Below, in pieces: positions 1 through 7,370 of a stretch of 7,370 bases of DNA. Numbering within the stretch: the stretch's first letter is position 1; the number at the start of each line of letters is the position of its first letter. Source of the stretch: a virus (lineage: Duplodnaviria; Heunggongvirae; Uroviricota; Caudoviricetes); IMG/VR virus record IMGVR_UViG_2681813313_000015, positions 1 through 7,370 of that record, one strand, 5' to 3'. The notes beneath the pieces are model-generated. The model searched no databases. It saw only the letters and a list, made by a program, of their open reading frames with translations, and was not told where the DNA came from. Both the position numbers and the translations under genes were made by a program.

Positions 1-1020
1 CTACTTGCTAACCACGAGCGGCAGATCCAGTGTTGGTGTGATTTTTGTTTTACGATCGTAAATCAACACCTGATTTTCTGTTTTATGCCCGCTGAAAATT
101 TGTTTGTCGCGACTGCTGCCTTCGTAATCTGAGATCCCCTTAGCTTTTATGTCGTGAAAATTGCACCCGAACGGAACGCCAACTTTTTGCTCGGCTGAGC
201 GTTTAGCCTGATTCCACCAGTTGTTCAGCGTTTTAGCTATGACTTTCCCGCCTTTGGTTGTATTGATCACATATTCGCATGTACAGGAAGATACATTTCG
301 GGCTAACTGGATCGCTGTACGTAATCGCGGTGACCATTCCTTGATTTGTTTGGTGCCGGTTTTGTTTTGCTCAATGTAGATCCCTTTATCCATAATATCC
401 TGCCATTTCAACTCAAGCACATCACCGAGCCTTGCCGCACAGAGATAGGAAATCTCCATTGCAATGCGTAACTGTGGAATTGCTTCCGCATATATCGCTG
501 CATACTGTTCATCGGTGATGTAAACAGTGCGGGCTTTAAGAGAGAATTTTCTGACTCCTTTACATGGGTTATTCTTCACGTATCCACGCTCATATCCCCA
601 CCCGTATACTCGACTCAGGCTTGCCAGTTCATGATTTGCCTGGGTCTTGCTCTCAAGCCCTCGTTTATCCATGAAAATTCTTACCTGCTCAGTTTTGACA
701 TTATCAGCAAGCACTTTTCCGAATACCATCAGCAACGCCTTCTGATGTTGTCGATAATCTTTTTGGGTTCGGGGGGCCAGTTCTGTAAATGCAGGGGAGT
801 CTATAAACATGTGCCATAATTTAGCTACGGTCATTATGTTGTGGAGTTTTGCTTTTTCCAGTTCATAATTTTGCCAGACTTTAGCTACGCTGGTTTTCCG
901 CACTCTTCCTAGCCCTATAGTTCTTGTACTTCCTTCTGGTTTCCACACGTAACTGTAACCATTCGATCTAACCCGCGGTGGCAGTACATTATCTTTTTTA
1001 TTTTTTCTTGGTCTTCCCAT
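1..1020 (-). CDS. int: Phage integrase, tyrosine recombinase (lambda Int family)
   Basis: 339-aa ORF. N-terminus MGRPRK..LPPRVRSNGYSYVW..GLGR resembles the lambda Int arm-binding region. Catalytic region aligns by eye to lambda Int: AARLGD (R212), EQNKTG (K235), FHDIK (H308-x-x-R311 position), SGHK (H333), LIYDRK (Y342). Stop codon at 1-3. Confidence 0.9.
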   Translation of the reverse strand: MGRPRKNKKDNVLPPRVRSNGYSYVWKPEGSTRTIGLGRVRKTSVAKVWQNYELEKAKLHNIMTVAKLWHMFIDSPAFTELAPRTQKDYRQHQKALLMVFGKVLADNVKTEQVRIFMDKRGLESKTQANHELASLSRVYGWGYERGYVKNNPCKGVRKFSLKARTVYITDEQYAAIYAEAIPQLRIAMEISYLCAARLGDVLELKWQDIMDKGIYIEQNKTGTKQIKEWSPRLRTAIQLARNVSSCTCEYVINTTKGGKVIAKTLNNWWNQAKRSAEQKVGVPFGCNFHDIKAKGISDYEGSSRDKQIFSGHKTENQVLIYDRKTKITPTLDLPLVVSK

Positions 1021-1240
1021 TATTCAGCGCCTCAAAATCGGGTTCAGCAGAAACCAGTTCAGATGTTTTTGGCATCGTTGTCAGTCCGTGTGGAATATCC
1101 CTGCGTAGAACTATTGGTTCGTTTTTAGGACCGATTACAAATGGGATGCCGTGCAGTCTTAACTGGTGTTGCTGTTTTGTGTATCGCTCGTATTTCGTGA
1201 TCTCTTTAATCTCTGCTGGAGATAGAGTTAATTCGTACAT
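998..1240 (-). CDS. xis: Excisionase-like protein (Xis)
   Basis: 80-aa ORF immediately upstream of int and overlapping its start by 23 nt, the classic xis-int arrangement. The N-terminus MYELTL and basic C-terminus NGKTKKK resemble lambda Xis (MYLTLQEW...NGKKAKS). Only a weak AAGG is present upstream. Confidence 0.6.
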   Translation of the reverse strand: MYELTLSPAEIKEITKYERYTKQQHQLRLHGIPFVIGPKNEPIVLRRDIPHGLTTMPKTSELVSAEPDFEALNNGKTKKK

Positions 1241-1307
1241 GTGGTCACGTGCCTTTACAGCATGACCGCCGCCACTGTAGCTGGTGGGCGGCGATATGGG
1301 TTGAACA

Positions 1308-3782
1308 TTAAAAATCAGCCTGACTCGGGATCAGTTTTTGCCAGATAGCTGAAACGTATTTTGCCTGATAACGGGCGTCATCAAGTGCATTATGGCGCTC
1401 ACCTTCGAATGGGATAGCAGTTCTGGCATCGAAGTCTATGGCTTTCCCCAGCTCAACGATTGTGCGTACATCGCGATCGTTGTAGTAACGCCACGGGCAG
1501 GGGATCCCCTGCCGTTCGTATGAACGGCGCAAAATCGTGTTGTCGAAGTTGGCTCCATTTCCCCAGACCTGAACAAAAAATTCACCGGAGTTTTCGTCGA
1601 TAAATTCCCGCAATTGTAACAGTGCATCATCTAACGGGATTTCATCGGTCATAATGGCAGACTGCGCTTCACGTGATTGCTTCAGCCACCTTTTAATGAC
1701 GTCACGATCAATGACTCCGCCAGCAGTTTCCAGATCGATAGTCTTACTAAATTCCGGTCCCATATCTCCGGTTTGCGGATCGAAAAATATTGCACCTATT
1801 GAGATAATCGGGGCATCCGGATTTTTTCCCATGGTTTTAAGGTCGATCATTAGATGGTCACACGTCCTGCTGGTGGATGTGATAACGTGATGACCGTTCA
1901 CCGTAATTAAGGGATCTGCCGTCTCGCCAGTTTCACTATCGCTGGCGTGGTCCTGAGCGCTGCCAGCATTCTCCTTGTGTGGATGTTCAGCGCCTTCCAT
2001 TTTCTCCGAATCGTCTTCCTGAACTTCAACCTGGTTCTTGTCATCGAATGTTTCCTGGTATGTTGCGTCGCCCATCACCGCGCCACAATCAGGGCAGTTG
2101 CCGCCGCCGGTCTGACCGCAGGCGGTGCAGATTTTTTCCGGTTCCTGTTGCGCTACTGGTTCAGGTTGTTTCGTTTCTGGCTCGTTTTGTAACGCATTTG
2201 GGCTGTTTTGTTCCGCTTTCTGGCCGTTCTGTTCCGTTTCTTGCTGGTTCTGATTCACTGAATCGCGGGTTTCAATCCCCTTCACCCATTTCGGATCATT
2301 CGGGTCGCTAATCCCTGCAACAAATTCACCACGTGATACAGCAAGCAACTTATTGGCGTCAGGCTGGCTGATATTGGCTGCCTGCATAATTTTGTTTACT
2401 TCGTCAGCGGTAACTTTTACCGGCTCTGGTTGTGCGATCGTGTCAGATGCACCAGTATTTTGTTGTGAACCTGAGTACGTGCCGTTTTTACGTGCGAAGT
2501 ATTCCTCTTTTGTGATTTCCGTAGCTCCCAGGGCCAGTGCTTTTTCCAGACCAGAAAGTTTGTTTGCGCGACCGTATTTTTCGCCGTCCTTATCAGTGAA
2601 AAGGAAGTAGAACGGTCCCTCACGCTCTACAGATGGTTCGTCTTCCACTTCGCATTCGGTTTTTTCGTTGTCCGGCATTGCCGTTTCCACTGCATCAGTT
2701 TCTGGTACTGGTGACGGGAGAGTACCAGCTGTGCCCTGATTTGTTCCTTCGTCATCTTCAAACACGCCCTTGGTAGTCAGGTATTCAGTGATGTATTTGT
2801 TCAGTGCTACGGGATCTTTGTGAATGTCGATCGGACGCTCACGGACAAGGCCAAAAATAGTCTGACGGTCGTAGCGAACGGCATCGGGTTGTTTGCGCAT
2901 TGATGCGGAAATGTGCTTCCAGTCTTCGCGATCTTTGTCGATAACTTCATTTTTTGCCCAGCGATGGATGCTGCCGTCAATGTTTCCGGTATCAATATCG
3001 CCAGGCCAGAGAGCGTAGGCCAGTTCTTCATCCAGCGTTTTCCATGTCTGCTTGTATTCGCGACAAATGGCGGCAGTGACTGGGTTGATTTTTCCTGCTG
3101 AGTTTTCAGTGTTCTGTTGATTGACTCTGGCGCTGGCGAGATCAACAACAGACGTGTATTTTCCAGTCTCTTTGCGCTCTGCGTCCTGCCGTTTTTTCCA
3201 GTTACGTAATTCAGCCTGAATTTCGGGCCATTTGGCACCCGGATTACATTTGTGTTTAACCCATCCGATAGCGAACAGTTTGCGTTCCGGATACATAGCG
3301 TTAATTTCAGGCGTTTTCATCAGTGCTTCAACGATATGCCCGTCAAAGGTAGCAACGTCTTCCTGCAGTAATTCCTGCGCGTCAATCGCCATATCAACGG
3401 TGATGTTTTCACATGTACCGAACTTAACCAGGACCGCGTTCTGTACTTCAAGGGACAGCTTGTCAAAATTGACGTTCATCGGATCGGATTCTGGTTCGAC
3501 CGGAATAAAGGAAGCGGATTCCTCATCCCAGCGGTTTTCCTGCATATATTCAGCATCCCAGGAATCGAGGGCAGGGCGGGGTATACCGGGTTTATCCTCG
3601 CAAACAAGAAATTTATAAGCGCAGTCCTGAGCAGCCGGATAATGTTCCAGGAATTGCCAGTGAAATTTTGCGCGGGCGCGACGTTCATCACCGGCTTCAA
3701 TGGCAGTGGCTACAGCGACGGCACCTTCTTCCTTTATTGCCTGTTCATCAGGAATAGCAGCGCAAATAAAGACCTTACTCAT
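1308..3782 (-). CDS. Large multidomain prophage exonuclease (exodeoxyribonuclease VIII/RecE-like annotation family) with C-terminal DEDDh-type 3'-5' exonuclease domain and an internal zinc ribbon
   Basis: 824-aa uninterrupted ORF with ATG at 3780-3782 and GAGG about 10 nt upstream. C-terminal ~190 aa (nt ~1311-1892) carries DnaQ-like motifs: MIDLKTMG...IISIGAI, TIDLETAGG, GNGANFD, HNALDDA. Zinc ribbon C552-x2-C555-x6-C562-x2-C565 at nt 2088-2129. Central region LLAVSRGEFVAGISDPNDPKWVKGI is recalled as typical of ExoVIII-annotated prophage proteins; that recollection is unverified. Confidence 0.8.
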   Translation of the reverse strand: MSKVFICAAIPDEQAIKEEGAVAVATAIEAGDERRARAKFHWQFLEHYPAAQDCAYKFLVCEDKPGIPRPALDSWDAEYMQENRWDEESASFIPVEPESDPMNVNFDKLSLEVQNAVLVKFGTCENITVDMAIDAQELLQEDVATFDGHIVEALMKTPEINAMYPERKLFAIGWVKHKCNPGAKWPEIQAELRNWKKRQDAERKETGKYTSVVDLASARVNQQNTENSAGKINPVTAAICREYKQTWKTLDEELAYALWPGDIDTGNIDGSIHRWAKNEVIDKDREDWKHISASMRKQPDAVRYDRQTIFGLVRERPIDIHKDPVALNKYITEYLTTKGVFEDDEGTNQGTAGTLPSPVPETDAVETAMPDNEKTECEVEDEPSVEREGPFYFLFTDKDGEKYGRANKLSGLEKALALGATEITKEEYFARKNGTYSGSQQNTGASDTIAQPEPVKVTADEVNKIMQAANISQPDANKLLAVSRGEFVAGISDPNDPKWVKGIETRDSVNQNQQETEQNGQKAEQNSPNALQNEPETKQPEPVAQQEPEKICTACGQTGGGNCPDCGAVMGDATYQETFDDKNQVEVQEDDSEKMEGAEHPHKENAGSAQDHASDSETGETADPLITVNGHHVITSTSRTCDHLMIDLKTMGKNPDAPIISIGAIFFDPQTGDMGPEFSKTIDLETAGGVIDRDVIKRWLKQSREAQSAIMTDEIPLDDALLQLREFIDENSGEFFVQVWGNGANFDNTILRRSYERQGIPCPWRYYNDRDVRTIVELGKAIDFDARTAIPFEGERHNALDDARYQAKYVSAIWQKLIPSQADF

Positions 3783-3868
3783 TTTGTTTTAACCTCATTA
3801 CAGATTTCAGGGTGAACGAATCCCTGCCATTGCTGGCATTTTTAATCCGTTGGTATGGTGTTAATATG

Positions 3869-3888
3869 GCTGGAGGGTTATCCAGCCG
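3869..3888. other. Perfect 7-bp stem hairpin GGCTGGA-gggtta-TCCAGCC overlapping the stop codon of the 62-aa gene, upstream of the exonuclease gene
   Basis: Direct reading. A T-rich run (GGTGTTTCGTTATT) follows on the plus strand only. Role unknown. Confidence 0.4.
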
Positions 3889-4066
3889 GTGTTTCGTTAT
3901 TCAGGTACAGCGATACTTTTTTTACCGGGAGGCATTCACCAGAAATTTTTTGCTCGTCTCTTGCCTGGAGGCAGGATTCTTTACTGGCATAAATTCTGGT
4001 AATCACATTCTGTGATTCACCCGTTATAAGAAAAACCGTCATCATCAGTGCAAATGCTGAAGTCAT
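3878..4066 (-). CDS. Hypothetical small protein with hydrophobic N-terminal segment (possible membrane or secreted peptide)
   Basis: 62-aa ORF. Its ATG overlaps the stop of the upstream gene (ATGA on the minus strand at 4063-4066). SD-like GGAG lies 7 nt upstream. N-terminus MTSAFALMMTVFLITG is hydrophobic; two Cys residues. Function unknown. Confidence 0.5.
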   Translation of the reverse strand: MTSAFALMMTVFLITGESQNVITRIYASKESCLQARDEQKISGECLPVKKVSLYLNNETPAG

Positions 4067-4251
4067 TGACGTTCTCCGAAAATACCAAGTTCAAGAAGAG
4101 CAATTCGGGAAAGTATGGAATTATCATTGAGCAGATAAGGCTCATATTTCCTCATATTAATGGCATCTTCAGTAAACTCCCGGTTACTGAGCAGAACACC
4201 AATATCAAAACAACCTTCAGACGTATTAACGTTTGGTAATAACGTTTCCAT
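4063..4251 (-). CDS. Hypothetical protein (62 aa from ATG at 4251; a GTG-initiated 97-aa form would extend to 4356)
   Basis: The ATG at 4249-4251 is preceded by GAGGA with 7-nt spacing. The stop overlaps the start of the next gene (ATGA), indicating translational coupling. No recognisable motif. Confidence 0.5.
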   Translation of the reverse strand: METLLPNVNTSEGCFDIGVLLSNREFTEDAINMRKYEPYLLNDNSILSRIALLELGIFGERQ

Positions 4252-4283
4252 TATCGCGTCCTCAACAATGAATTTTGTGATGC

Positions 4284-4327
4284 GGTGCCTGGTGCCTCCA
4301 GGTGACGTTAACCAGTTAACAATTAAC
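4284..4327. repeat. Short tandem repeats: GGTGCCT x2 (4284-4297) and three TTAAC units (4308-4312, 4316-4320, 4323-4327)
   Basis: Direct reading. Lies upstream of the ATG at 4251, inside the GTG-extended form of that ORF. Confidence 0.5.
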
Positions 4328-4503
4328 GCCGGATACAGAGAATCCACCCATAACACTGTTTTTGGTTTTAACTGTTCCGCGTGCGCTCAGCCGCATTCAC
4401 CGCATCACAAAATTCACTTTAAAAACGGCGGCAGAGCAGTCACGGAGTAAAACTGATACCGCCAAACGTCACCAGAAAATTGATAACAGAGGGCGTTGCA
4501 GCG

Positions 4504-4540
4504 GGGTTGTCACTTAAGCGTATGGTCAACCTGACAACCC
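4504..4540. repeat. Perfect 9-bp inverted repeat GGGTTGTCA-N19-TGACAACCC in noncoding DNA
   Basis: Direct reading of the sequence. Not followed by a T-tract on either strand, so it is not a canonical terminator. Confidence 0.6.
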
Positions 4541-4754
4541 GGTGTCCTCAACGGGGGAAGGAATAACCCCGCCATACTTACCGCCGCGCCATTTCGCGGG
4601 TTGCCACAACCGGAAGCGCACGGTCGAATTAAATTTAACGACACCGTACAGTGAGACGAACTTCGCCGTGCGCTTTCGTGTTGTGTGCCTGCTTTTAACC
4701 ACGTCAGGCGAGGTGGTATCCTTCTTATCCCGAATAACCAAGAAGGAAATCTAT

Positions 4755-4955
4755 ATGACTAAAGAAGAATTTGTCTCTTATATTTTTGATAAAACGGTTG
4801 AAATGTATGCCGCTACTTACGGGTCCTGTAATCCTCTGAATAAACCAGAGGGGAAAGATGATTTCGACAAAATTTACCGCTTCTTGGAGGACCGCTATAT
4901 CAAAAGGTTAGAGGACGCAGGGATCAAATCCCCAGTGAAGTCACCATTGTCCTGA
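4755..4955 (+). CDS. Hypothetical 66-aa protein, moron-like gene convergent to the early-left operon
   Basis: ATG at 4755 preceded by AAGGA (4743-4747) with 7-nt spacing. AT-rich composition. The in-frame upstream extension (from GTG at 4542) has no RBS. Its 3' end overlaps the convergent minus-strand gene by 32 nt. Confidence 0.5.
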   Translation: MTKEEFVSYIFDKTVEMYAATYGSCNPLNKPEGKDDFDKIYRFLEDRYIKRLEDAGIKSPVKSPLS

Positions 4956-5289
4956 GAACTTGCAGGACGTCATGATCGTAACTTCCATCCAAACCGCGAC
5001 GGCAAATTGCTTCTCGTATTACCGGAAGCAGTTCGCTGGAAATCTCGGTGCATATTTCACCTGATAATACGCTTGGCTCAAGTGAGAATATTGGTGAACT
5101 TACGGTCTTGGTCTCGACAGTTTCAGAGTCAGTGCCAACATTATAAAGCTCAACGAAAGCGGTCTTGATTTTCCGGGCCAGATCTTTTGCTGGCTCGCTT
5201 GCAATATCTTTCCCGATTTCTCGCAGCACAGAATGCAATGTATGAGCTGCTGTTTTCTGTACATCAGACGGTAAATCTTTAAATTCCAT
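4924..5289 (-). CDS. Hypothetical mildly acidic protein (121 aa from ATG at 5289; alternative ATG at 5301 gives 125 aa)
   Basis: The ATG at 5287-5289 is preceded by GAGG with 6-nt spacing. The alternative ATG at 5299-5301 overlaps the upstream stop (TGATG). Second gene of a coupled pair downstream of the putative PL/OL. No recognisable motif. Confidence 0.55.
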   Translation of the reverse strand: MEFKDLPSDVQKTAAHTLHSVLREIGKDIASEPAKDLARKIKTAFVELYNVGTDSETVETKTVSSPIFSLEPSVLSGEICTEISSELLPVIREAICRRGLDGSYDHDVLQVLRTMVTSLGI

Positions 5290-5300
5290 CGTCAGCCTCA

Positions 5301-5453
5301 TCAGTCAGTGTTTCTGGCTAACCAGCAACGCGCGCCAGATCCGGTTTTAAACGTTTTGCTTTTGGTATATGTCATCGCGGTGAACGTACCGCCCTGGTTG
5401 GGGAACACGCCGTACACCAGAGATTCGTTGTTGCCAAGATCGATAGTATCCAT
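5301..5453 (-). CDS. Hypothetical small protein (50 aa from ATG at 5453; the track's 81-aa form starting at 5546 is probably not translated)
   Basis: The ATG at 5451-5453 is preceded by GAGGT with 4-5-nt spacing. The upstream ATG at 5546 lies inside the operator and promoter spacer and has no SD. Confidence 0.4.
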   Translation of the reverse strand: MDTIDLGNNESLVYGVFPNQGGTFTAMTYTKSKTFKTGSGARCWLARNTD

Positions 5454-5530
5454 GTTGACCTCATTTCCCCTTAACGCCGGGGTAGCGGAACTGTTTGCTG
5501 AGAACACCGTGCGGTGTCTTGATGGATCGT

Positions 5531-5582
5531 AATTTAGTTTTCTCATGAATATTGGTCAAGTACTTTTAATGAGAAAACTCAA
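5531..5582 (-). promoter_or_regulatory. OL/PL-like operator pair and leftward early promoter
   Basis: Two inverted copies of the operator motif (5534-5546 as the complement of ATGAGAAAACTAA; 5569-5582 ATGAGAAAACTCAA) flank a 22-bp spacer. On the minus strand: -35 TTGACC (5559-5554), 17-bp spacer, -10 TAAATT (5536-5531). Confidence 0.55.
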
Positions 5583-5587
5583 TATTT

Positions 5588-5627
5588 AATGCAAAATAAA
5601 GCCAATACATTGAAATGTAAGGCTTTA
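5588..5627 (-). terminator. Putative intrinsic terminator downstream of the repressor gene
   Basis: Interrupted hairpin (outer stem TAAAGCC/GGCTTTA at 5597-5603 and 5621-5627; inner stem TACAT/ATGTA) followed on the minus strand by UUUUGCAUU. The stem is AT-rich, so it is weak. Confidence 0.35.
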
Positions 5628-5644
5628 AAATTTGTGAAGGGGGG

Positions 5645-6052
5645 TTATTGATGTTTGTTACGTTTGCGAGCTTCTAGTAGCTCGGTGAATAGGCGATTAA
5701 AATTCTCAACGCGGGCACGGAGTTCGCTGATTTGTGCTTGCTGCTCTGATTTTGGAAGTGCGCGATACAATCGCAACATCTCCAACTCATCTTCCGATAA
5801 GTCTAAGGCGCTGTTGAGTGCAACTGGTGGATCTGGTGTTTTATCCTCGTCACCAAACAGTATCCAAGTTGGTGAACATTGCAATACCTCAGCCAGGCGA
5901 TGCAAATTTTGCCCGCGCGGGGCTGTATGGTCGCTTTCCCATAGTGAAATTGATGAGCCAGATACGCCAGCAGCTTTGCTTAAATCGTTTTGACTTAAAC
6001 CAACCTGTTTGCGTCTTTCTCTAATTCGTTGACCTAAAGTTTTCTCGTTCAT
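5645..6052 (-). CDS. Prophage immunity repressor, XRE/cI-type HTH, without an S24 peptidase domain (RacR-like)
   Basis: 135-aa ORF. N-terminal HTH_3-type motif (GQRIRERRKQVGLSQNDLSKAAGVSGSSISLWE). Divergent from a Cro-like gene across a 77-bp region carrying palindromic operators. No Ala-Gly/Ser-Lys autocleavage module was seen. Confidence 0.85.
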   Translation of the reverse strand: MNEKTLGQRIRERRKQVGLSQNDLSKAAGVSGSSISLWESDHTAPRGQNLHRLAEVLQCSPTWILFGDEDKTPDPPVALNSALDLSEDELEMLRLYRALPKSEQQAQISELRARVENFNRLFTELLEARKRNKHQ

Positions 6053-6073
6053 ATTTAGATATCTTAATAACCC

Positions 6074-6116
6074 TTGACTTGAGATTCCTTGAGTGATTAC
6101 TATTGAGAAAACTCAA
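6074..6116. promoter_or_regulatory. OR-like divergent promoter/operator region between repressor and cro-like gene
   Basis: Palindrome TTGAGAAAACTCAA at 6103-6116, extra TTGAG half-sites at 6079-6083 and 6089-6093, and -35-like TTGACT at 6074-6079. No clean -10 could be placed. Confidence 0.6.
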
Positions 6117-6129
6117 CTTTGGAGGGGTG

Positions 6130-6357
6130 ATGTTTAAATCAGACGTAATTAATTTTTATGGGACGAAAGCCAAAGTAGCGAAAGCTGCTGGTGTTGATCC
6201 ATCTGCTGTTTCTCAATGGGGGGAACTGGTTCCTGAAGGTCGCGCGATGCGCCTGCAAGAGGCATCCGGCGGGGAACTTCAGTACGACCCCAAAGTTTAT
6301 GACGAATATCGTAAGGCAAAGCGGGCGGGGCGGTTGAACAATGAAAATCACCCCTGA
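6130..6357 (+). CDS. Cro/YdaS-like small HTH regulator
   Basis: 75 aa from ATG at 6130 with GGAGG 4 nt upstream. Contains the motif FYGTKAKVAKAAGVDPSAVSQW typical of Cro/YdaS-like proteins. The track's TTG start at 6103 would place the first codons inside the operator palindrome. Confidence 0.8.
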   Translation: MFKSDVINFYGTKAKVAKAAGVDPSAVSQWGELVPEGRAMRLQEASGGELQYDPKVYDEYRKAKRAGRLNNENHP

Positions 6358-6892
6358 ACAGGTTTGTGAGGCTCTGGATGCCTGGGTATGCCGACCAGGA
6401 ATGACACAGGAGCAGGCGACGATATTAATCACGGAAGCATTCTGGGCTCTGAAAGAACGCCCGAACATCGATGTTCAACGCGTCACGTTTAATGATGGCG
6501 AGGTTGATCAACGGGCGCTGGGCGTTAACCGGGTGAAGATATTCGAACGCTGGAAAGCTATCGACACCAGGGATAAGCGGAAAAAATTCACGGCGCTGAT
6601 TCCGGCAATTATGGAGGCTATCCGAATTAGTGATTTCAGGCTGTATCGTGAGATCAGTGATGGAAAAAGCATTACGTACATGATCGCCGGATTAAACAAA
6701 GAATATGGCGATGTGGTGGAGTCCGGGCTGCTTTTTGCGGATCCAGCTGTTGTGGAACGTGAGACTGACGAGCTTATAGAAAAAGCTATTGCTTTCAAGC
6801 ATGCGTATCGTCAGCAATATCAATATTACTTTGCAGATAAACAAATGTCTGCCAGGGGTTCGTATGAGTATCGATGCACTACGATGGGCTAA
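6341..6892 (+). CDS. cII-like/YdaT-family protein
   Basis: 183-aa ORF overlapping the cro-like stop by 17 nt. The position (third gene of a repressor-Cro-cII-like trio) and the segment IFERWKAIDTRDKRKKFTALIPAIMEAI resemble Rac YdaT as recalled; the family assignment is unverified. Confidence 0.65.
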   Translation: MKITPEQVCEALDAWVCRPGMTQEQATILITEAFWALKERPNIDVQRVTFNDGEVDQRALGVNRVKIFERWKAIDTRDKRKKFTALIPAIMEAIRISDFRLYREISDGKSITYMIAGLNKEYGDVVESGLLFADPAVVERETDELIEKAIAFKHAYRQQYQYYFADKQMSARGSYEYRCTTMG

Positions 6893-7370
6893 AAAGGTGA
6901 AAACCGGCAGTTCATCCAGTAAGTCAGTATTGACCTGGCTTGCTGATATGTGCGGTGCCGATTTGTGTGCATACCCGTCTGTATCTGCCCTGGCAGAAGT
7001 AACGGAACTGAACAAAAAGACAGTGCAGGACAGCTTACGACACCTGATGGAGATTGGGTTAATTGTTGATACCGGTGAGAGAAAAGGCAGAACAAAGCAA
7101 ATTGTGGTGTACCGACTTATCGGTGTAGAAGAAAGTGTTGCCGAACCTGAATACACCCAAAAACGGGAGTCTTTAAAGGTGGGTAAAATTGGTGCTGTTA
7201 ATAAAAACAGTACCGAAAATGGTTATGTTTCAGCACAAAACAGACCCAAAAACGGAACTCTTAGCTGCATGAACCGCCCCGGGTTTCCTGGAGAGTGTTT
7301 TATCTGTGAACTCAGGCTGCCAGATCATCGTTTCCGATGGAAGCATAATAAGCTTTTTCTGCTTCTGCCG
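6864..7370 (+). CDS. Phage replication initiation protein, N-terminal HTH domain (lambda O-like role); 3'-truncated by the window end
   Basis: Read by hand: ATG at 6864 preceded by AGGGG (5-nt spacing), 169 codons with no stop to position 7370. N-terminus MSIDALRWAKKVK...LADMCGADLCAYPSVSALAEVTELNKKTVQDSLRHLMEIGLIV is typical of HTH replication initiators. Absent from the ORF track, presumably because it has no stop in the window. Confidence 0.75.
   Translation, partial: MSIDALRWAKKVKTGSSSSKSVLTWLADMCGADLCAYPSVSALAEVTELNKKTVQDSLRHLMEIGLIVDTGERKGRTKQIVVYRLIGVEESVAEPEYTQKRESLKVGKIGAVNKNSTENGYVSAQNRPKNGTLSCMNRPGFPGECFICELRLPDHRFRWKHNKLFLLLP
7155..7258. repeat. Iteron-like direct repeats CCCAAAAACGG inside the replication gene
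   Basis: Exact 11-mer at 7156-7166 and 7245-7255, with a degenerate copy CCGAAAATGG at 7213-7222. The copies fall in different codon phases of the ORF. Confidence 0.35.

Follow-up and report, generated by a model that had tools for sequence, protein, structure and literature searches.

A prophage exonuclease with lysine at the Exo I glutamate position

We analyzed a 7,370-nucleotide (nt) stretch of viral DNA (positions 1 to 7,370 of IMG/VR record IMGVR_UViG_2681813313_000015; the whole of this stretch is referred to below as the window), which forms the left arm of an Escherichia coli lambdoid prophage of Rac/Qin type inserted beside yccA and is 100% identical to NZ_CP148579 and NZ_CP148374. 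Judged by the order of genes in the window, the exonuclease open reading frame (ORF) that is the subject of this study is the last large gene of a repressor-controlled early-left operon (Table 1). The 824-residue product, which NCBI names simply "exonuclease", has a layout of several parts. Three predicted folded domains, for which we found no informative fold match among the solved structures in the PDB, are followed by a largely disordered linker with a four-cysteine motif and by a C-terminal nuclease domain, the sole domain in the protein that Pfam recognizes. Within this nuclease domain, lysine (K649) takes the place of the metal-binding glutamate of the first catalytic motif, Exo I.

Table 1. 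Features of the window and of the exonuclease encoded in it. Positions are nt of the window. aa, amino acids; CDS, coding sequence; AF2, AlphaFold2; pLDDT, predicted local distance difference test; HTH, helix-turn-helix.
Feature	Position	Strand	Remarks
Tyrosine integrase (int)	1-1020	minus	prophage end adjoining yccA
Excisionase (xis, DUF4224)	998-1240	minus	PHROG 1266 excisionase; next gene downstream of the exonuclease
Exonuclease ORF, 824 aa, WP_053881677.1	1308-3782	minus	100% identical to annotated CDS in NZ_CP148579
N-terminal alpha/beta domain, YdfE type, aa 1-~210	3153-3782	minus	AF2 pLDDT ~95
Helical domain, aa ~240-345	2748-3065	minus	AF2 pLDDT >90; ~23% identity to RecE
Small beta/alpha domain, aa ~385-440	2463-2630	minus	AF2 pLDDT ~95; disordered segments on either side
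RecE-like linker, aa 478-627, rich in E, Q, A and T	1902-2351	minus	mostly disordered; pLDDT <50 except ribbon
Four-Cys zinc-ribbon-like motif, CxxC-x7-CxxC (C552, C555, C563, C566)	2085-2129	minus	pLDDT ~75
DEDDh 3′-5′ exonuclease domain, Rv2179c/DexA family, aa 643-814	1341-1856	minus	Pfam PF16473
D647, Exo I Asp	1842-1844	minus	retained; aligns to DexA D7
K649, at Exo I metal-binding Glu position	1836-1838	minus	codon AAA (family codon GAA)
IDLET, aa 682-686, look-alike	1725-1739	minus	end of strand beta-3 in model
R698	1689-1691	minus	codon AGG; Trp in 93% of family; common polymorphism
D747, Exo II Asp	1542-1544	minus	retained; 97% conserved in family; aligns to DexA D119
H797-x4-D802, Exo III (DEDDh)	1377-1394	minus	retained; invariant among homologues
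YdfD/DUF1482 lysis-protein gene	3878-4066	minus	
dicB	4063-4251	minus	
DicF small RNA, full length	4426-4477	minus	Rfam RF00039, 72.5 bits vs gathering score 48
66-aa gene, phrog_34441	4755-4955	plus	hypothetical in NZ_CP148579 annotation
Small genes without known function	upstream of DicF RNA, before HTH repressor	minus	
HTH repressor	5645-6052	minus	
Cro-like gene and YdaT-family gene	divergent from repressor	plus	

The assignment of the C-terminal domain to the DEDDh nucleases, proposed in an initial annotation made from the DNA letters, was borne out by both sequence and predicted structure. The match to PF16473 (Rv2179c-like 3′-5′ exoribonuclease) took in profile positions 2-177 out of 177 and scored 208.4 bits, the cutoff being 27 (E 8.5e-62). 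For residues 628-824, an AF2 model that drew on 49 homologues (pLDDT 86.3) gave phage T4 DexA as the best Foldseek matches in the PDB (8KEN/8KEL, template modelling score 0.72-0.73, E 1.8e-11), followed by RNase T, oligoribonuclease (Orn) and REXO2, all of which are DEDDh enzymes. DexA (8kel) was also the sole PDB sequence match of the family profile (E 2.5e-15). In this model, the domain has the RNase H-like DnaQ fold.

Four of the five catalytic residues of the domain are intact. The catalytic set of DexA has been given as D7, E12, D119, H186 and D191 (PMC12153337); "E12" is the reading printed in the legend, and the deposited sequence has the glutamate two residues after D7, which is E9. 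In addition to the correspondences listed in Table 1, H797 and D802 align to DexA H186 and D191. The exception is Exo I, where the D-x-E of the DEDDh family reads D647-L-K649 within MIDLKT (residues 645-650), with the aspartate kept and the glutamate changed to lysine. The placement of this lysine, as first suggested in the initial annotation, was the same in three independent alignments: phmmer set DexA IIDFETMG opposite MIDLKTMG, the family profile set hlmiDletmg opposite DexA DFIIDFETMG, and the third is the alignment of cluster representatives described below. In the AF2 model, too, the lysine is where Exo I normally sits, at the end of strand beta-1 (residues 642-650). K649 thus occupies the Exo I glutamate position.

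The lysine is not a trait of the family. In an alignment of 120 cluster representatives, the Exo I column held glutamate in 92 of 103 occupied rows, and the rows without Glu came mostly from deletion or fusion variants that were misaligned. The five catalytic positions read DEDHD in 86 of the representatives whose domain is complete, DKDHD in three and DENHD in one (D747N in P0035), the remaining oddities being internal-deletion fusions. Besides the protein studied here, DKDHD is read in a fragment from E. coli and in one protein of Klebsiella oxytoca. On alignment, therefore, K649 is at the catalytic position and the homologues do not share it, which leaves an altered or dead first metal site as the correct one of the two explanations originally offered.

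The other explanation had been that the motif assignment differs from the standard one, since a canonical-looking IDLET lies downstream. This sequence is indeed present, with D683 placed 36 residues past D647, but it is not a catalytic motif. Its positions vary across the family, with D (69 sequences) or S (33) at residue 683 and with E (66), K (15) or D (13) at residue 685. The consensus of the wider family at this place is ISLxSA, and DexA reads FDLKS. We also considered that the enzyme might still be active, either because another acidic residue, for example D683 or E685, completes the site or because the lysine replaces one metal electrostatically. The intactness of D647, D747, H797 and D802 and the nearness of an acidic IDLET would favor such activity. 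We nevertheless judge it very unlikely, given that S, K, D and V all occur at positions 683/685, that DexA carries K at the 685 equivalent, and that the Klebsiella lysine variant reads VSLKSS in place of IDLET. Copies with glutamate at 649 have the same IDLET, so the motif did not arise as compensation, and in the model it lies at the end of beta-3 rather than on beta-1.

Distribution of the gene and of its lysine allele

The gene itself is widespread. Its product matches PHROG 2082 ("exonuclease") over residues 1-824 and profile positions 1-823 of 823 (1803.7 bits, E = 0), and so the complete architecture is that of an already existing phage protein family. Of the 5,426 complete E. coli genomes searched by megablast, 4,788 matched the gene, 3,511 of them with ≥80% coverage, and one genome could have as many as 10 places. 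Deposited phage records contained the full-length gene in 17 cases and the nuclease domain in 677. Copies that are truncated or frameshifted occur commonly in the family. One of these is the K-12 pseudogene ydfE, which is 87.5% identical across residues 1-256 and is cut off by IS2 after ~256 codons. Another K-12 pseudogene, exoD of DLP12, was considered as a C-terminal fragment of the family and was rejected, as BLAST detected no similarity. Searches of the literature returned only gene lists for ydfE and nothing for Rv2179c combined with prophage, and a PADLOC defence-family search of the protein gave no match.

The two alleles were counted in the complete E. coli genomes with megablast queries of 55 nt that had the variant base in the middle, so that every 28-nt seed had to include it. 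AAA (Lys) was present at 32 places in 32 genomes and GAA (Glu) at 5,773 places in 3,737 genomes, corresponding to about 0.55% lysine among all copies. Strains with the lysine allele include O103:H2 12009, O45:H2, O121 and ECOR29. Within the domain, up to 23 of 594 nt separate one lysine allele from another, and a local haplotype around codons 633-659 is common to them, a combination that fits a single origin followed by recombination. The Klebsiella lysine variant, in contrast, is independent and recent, because its three cluster mates keep glutamate; as GAA to AAA is a simple transition, such recurrence is unsurprising. The allele differs from the common one by a single base, as a sequencing or assembly error would. 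This explanation has next to no chance of being correct and is already refuted by the same codon in 32 independent complete genomes and by the exact 824-residue protein on 88 contigs from several sources in a large collection.

Apart from K649, this copy departs from positions conserved in ≥75% of the family only by T695V and W698R. We examined W698R as a possible second sign of decay and rejected it as a general claim, since the AGG-Arg698 allele is common (549 places in 542 genomes) and mostly accompanies Glu649, ST131 strains included. A second arginine codon, CGG, is found on a separate local haplotype in 17 genomes, among them O103:H2 12009, and all 17 also have K649; this co-occurrence may mark one clonal prophage lineage. 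The presence of two arginine codons on two sequence backgrounds suggests that the change from tryptophan to arginine happened twice.

Predicted consequence for nuclease activity

In DEDD nucleases, the Exo I glutamate helps bind two catalytic metal ions, and in Klenow, the epsilon subunit and RNase T, mutation of the Exo I acidic pair abolishes activity. Under this two-metal mechanism, the K649 copy is expected to be inactive or severely impaired. The reading we prefer, to which we give a probability of roughly 0.75, is that the protein is a naturally inactivated or strongly impaired exonuclease, a rare allele of a common prophage gene that is tolerated by prophages, and no new type of active site. 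The gene, an early-left-operon gene of Rac/Qin-type prophages, encodes a modular protein of three folded domains, a disordered linker with a ribbon, and a nuclease, with the DEDDh domain occupying the place where RecE has a PD-(D/E)XK 5′-3′ nuclease. The family as a whole would provide a 3′-5′ exonuclease on a RecE-like scaffold, likely expressed from the early-left operon upon derepression. A single GAA to AAA transition has turned the Exo I glutamate into lysine with the other four catalytic residues left intact; the lysine would both cost one metal ligand and place a positive charge in the metal site. The product would be catalytically dead or severely impaired yet still folding. What the analysis shows is the family, the fold, the equivalence of the residue, how rare the allele is, and the synteny; we infer the loss or strong reduction of nuclease activity in the K649 allele, with the fold kept, and likewise the biological role of the family.

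Several points weigh against inactivation followed by mere tolerance. The predicted loss of activity is drawn from the general DEDD mechanism. The lysine alleles are no one-off, being found at three integration sites (yccA, the Qin site at rspB, and potC). The annotation is that of an ordinary exonuclease in 29 of the 32 copies, the other three having a name that, in the one inspected, goes with a frameshifted pseudogene. In addition, the ratio of nonsynonymous to synonymous polymorphism (pN/pS) is 0.19 among lysine alleles versus 0.24 among glutamate alleles, unlike what free decay of the domain would give, although the former value comes from five lysine alleles and is confounded by recombination with glutamate alleles.

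The spread over three attachment sites and several serogroups with mostly intact ORFs, together with the low pN/pS, could instead point to a lysine allele that has been selected as a pseudo-nuclease, binding 3′ ends or nucleotides without cutting and kept either for the sake of the N-terminal modules, which would carry the main function, or because a nuclease that does not work would be less toxic to the lysogen. The recombination of the codon 633-659 haplotype onto differing downstream backgrounds, the 88 contigs with the exact protein, and the exclusive association of CGG-Arg698 with K649 (17 of 17 genomes) are also in line with such selection. We consider it unlikely, as lysine makes up only 0.55% of copies and many of the 32 genomes are clonally related O103, O45 and O121 Shiga toxin-producing E. 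coli (STEC). Moreover, recombination with glutamate alleles can bring in synonymous diversity and so mimic constraint, active-site transitions occur sporadically elsewhere (D747N in P0035 and the lone Klebsiella E-to-K change), and broken copies of the gene are frequent in the family.

A linker shared with RecE and exchangeable nuclease domains

The region upstream of the nuclease domain is related to Rac prophage RecE (NP_415866.1). In the alignment, which pairs residues 262-627 with RecE 278-592, identity is uneven, amounting to ~23% for residues 262-447, where the helical domain is distantly related to RecE 278-391, and to 66% at the amino acid level and 76% at the nt level for residues 478-627, which correspond to RecE 457-592. 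The latter segment is the linker, whose Q/E-rich character had been noted from the start and which is predicted to be disordered. The zinc ribbon described along with it could be kept in part: the four cysteines are present and, since Rac RecE has the same motif (CxxCGQTGGxNCPDCG), do not match by chance, but the central spacing is x7 rather than x6 and the motif covers nt 2085-2129 rather than 2088-2129. The best 120 matches in a search for N-terminal homologues were near-identical E. coli fragments, and a diverse set was taken from 50% representatives. The four-Cys motif was found in only one of 61 long representatives of the family N-terminal region, the closest one, indicating that the ribbon is no conserved hallmark of the family and that the linker is a mosaic segment common to E. 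coli RecE and this gene. The similarity between the linker and recE (L002:5787-8387) ends exactly where the nuclease domains begin. In sequence, this edge looks like a recombination joint for domain swapping.

The 66% identity of residues 478-627 to RecE, ribbon included, and the many records that name such proteins exodeoxyribonuclease VIII might be taken to mean that the protein is a RecE/ExoVIII-type recombination exonuclease whose RecT partner was lost from this prophage. This idea is highly improbable and already refuted by the domain assignment. We detected no similarity to RecE residues 600-866 and no PD-(D/E)XK domain in the protein, its C-terminus being PF16473 DEDDh, a different nuclease fold of opposite polarity. 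The NCBIfam RecE equivalog model NF007259 reached 279.6 bits against a cutoff of 1269, with the match limited to residues 448-627.

Nor does the lack of a RecT gene set this prophage apart. As first observed, no annealing-protein gene follows the exonuclease; none is present in the window or in its 26-kb annotated context, and no window ORF matches an annealing-protein PHROG. The absence had been regarded as unusual, but RecT/Bet genes were missing from all 12 related loci examined (this one and 11 others), at five integration sites, so that no loss specific to this prophage is indicated. The gene order int-xis-exonuclease-(ydfD or kil)-dicB is common to all 12 loci; the arrangement in Rac is recE-recT instead. 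In the Red and RecET mechanism, the 3′ tails needed by annealing proteins would be removed by a 3′-5′ nuclease. A 3′-5′ DEDDh enzyme is therefore not of the type that pairs with annealing proteins, and the missing partner is expected.

To look for other proteins with the same carrier, residues 1-447 were searched against 1.84 billion representative proteins, and the long ones among the 191 relatives obtained were classified. The YdfE-type N-terminal domain is joined to differing C-terminal nucleases in other proteins, and all four combinations of N-terminus and nuclease exist among the long relatives. The YdfE-type N-terminus is combined with DEDDh in the protein studied here, P0241 and P0243, and with PD-(D/E)XK (DUF3799) in P0250, P0293 and P0324. 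The RecE-type N-terminus (Pfam PF06630) is combined with DEDDh in P0259, P0353, P0370 and P0383, and with PD-(D/E)XK in RecE itself and P0262. A further eight proteins with a YdfE-type N-terminal region (P0246, P0248, P0251, P0252, P0260, P0268, P0290 and P0309) have a C-terminus without a Pfam match; these regions of ~300 aa are neither DEDDh nor the RecE nuclease and may be a third type of effector domain on the same carrier. The "unusual architecture" of the initial annotation is thus one state of a modular, nuclease-swapping family, and the 824-residue layout, matched end to end by PHROG 2082, is found in thousands of E. coli genomes.

These combinations allow a broader proposal, in which the YdfE- or RecE-type N-terminus and the linker would form a delivery or targeting scaffold for nuclease effectors that are swapped, be they of DEDDh type, of PD-(D/E)XK type or of at least one type without a Pfam match. 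K649, with 698-Arg, would then have been maintained as a variant that does not cut, a pseudo-nuclease or substrate trap serving its own function, for instance in phage-phage or phage-defence conflict, rather than be a product of decay. We regard this joint proposal as distinctly improbable.

Neighbouring genes in the prophage

The gene directly downstream of the exonuclease is xis, as initially annotated, although the intervening gap is 67 nt and not 68. The start of the integrase gene and the 3′ end of xis overlap by 23 nt (998-1020, minus strand), a typical coupled xis-int layout. On the other side of the exonuclease, the presence of DicF, dicB and the YdfD/DUF1482 gene indicates that the window has an intact, Qin-like dicBF-type operon. 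The K-12 Qin counterpart is the DicA-repressed dicBF operon ydfABC-dicF-dicB-ydfD-ydfE, in which ydfE is the last gene, and a 2023 study described the products of this operon other than DicF, DicB and YdfD as uncharacterised (PMC10448788).

The 66-aa gene on the plus strand lies inside the leftward early operon, and its 3′ end overlaps an ORF on the minus strand (4924-5301); the gene could represent a moron-like insertion. Beyond the window, after the replication genes (19075-23664 of the annotated prophage context), we observed two frameshifted genes (a hypothetical one and an integrase fragment), a DUF5677 gene, and a pair of genes encoding an AAA-ATPase and an HNH endonuclease. This stretch looks like an inserted island that is possibly defence-related, and its frameshifted genes mean that the prophage has some decayed genes.

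Comparison with known systems

What is new here is the rare natural active-site allele; the gene itself is an annotated and very common prophage exonuclease. In itself, a rare allele that probably inactivates such a gene is of little importance. However, the family, which roughly two in three E. coli genomes carry (~69% of complete ones) in the same operon as DicB and DicF, is still uncharacterised, and the K649 copy would be a ready-made natural catalytic mutant for characterising it.

The founding member of PF16473, Rv2179c of Mycobacterium tuberculosis, is reported to act by itself as a 3′ exoribonuclease and to have the DEDDh set complete (Abendroth et al. 2014, J Biol Chem). Residues 643-814 are covered nearly end to end by the Pfam model that bears its name, and the phmmer, profile and Foldseek comparisons gave no direct sequence or structure match to Rv2179c itself.

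T4 DexA (exonuclease A; PDB 8KEL/8KEN) and the E. coli DexA homologue EcD are the sole characterised relatives, and both belong to other subfamilies. DexA, with roles in scavenging the DNA of the host and in the homing of introns, shares the Pfam family and the DEDDh fold with this domain at ~20% identity. EcD has been described as 'HREX' defence, with claimed activity against T4 (PMC12153337); judged from the cloning primers, its sequence runs from MIDTET to TIPETYD. Each is a protein on its own, about 190-230 aa long and with its D-x-E intact, whereas the domain described here is the C-terminus of an 824-aa protein and has D-x-K. We considered and rejected transferring the EcD phenotype to this protein, as EcD is a separate stand-alone subfamily; compared with HREX/EcD-type proteins, which are characterised by selective degradation of 5hmC DNA, the domain is not stand-alone, its catalytic set is incomplete, and PADLOC did not match it.

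With ydfE (b1577) in the Qin prophage of K-12, the gene shares the order dicF-dicB-ydfD-ydfE-(xis)-int; the K-12 copy is without the linker and the nuclease domain, and the copy in the window is full length. RecE of Rac has the same early-left operon position, a homologous central region and the 66% identical linker with its ribbon. The two proteins differ in their N-terminal 260 residues, which are of YdfE type here, and in their C-termini: RecE ends in a PD-(D/E)XK 5′-3′ double-stranded DNA exonuclease that works with RecT, and this protein ends in a DEDDh 3′-5′ domain without RecT. At least two nuclease domains, unrelated and opposite in polarity, thus have the poorly understood N-terminal and linker region of RecE as a common carrier, a finding that bears on the role of this region in RecE.

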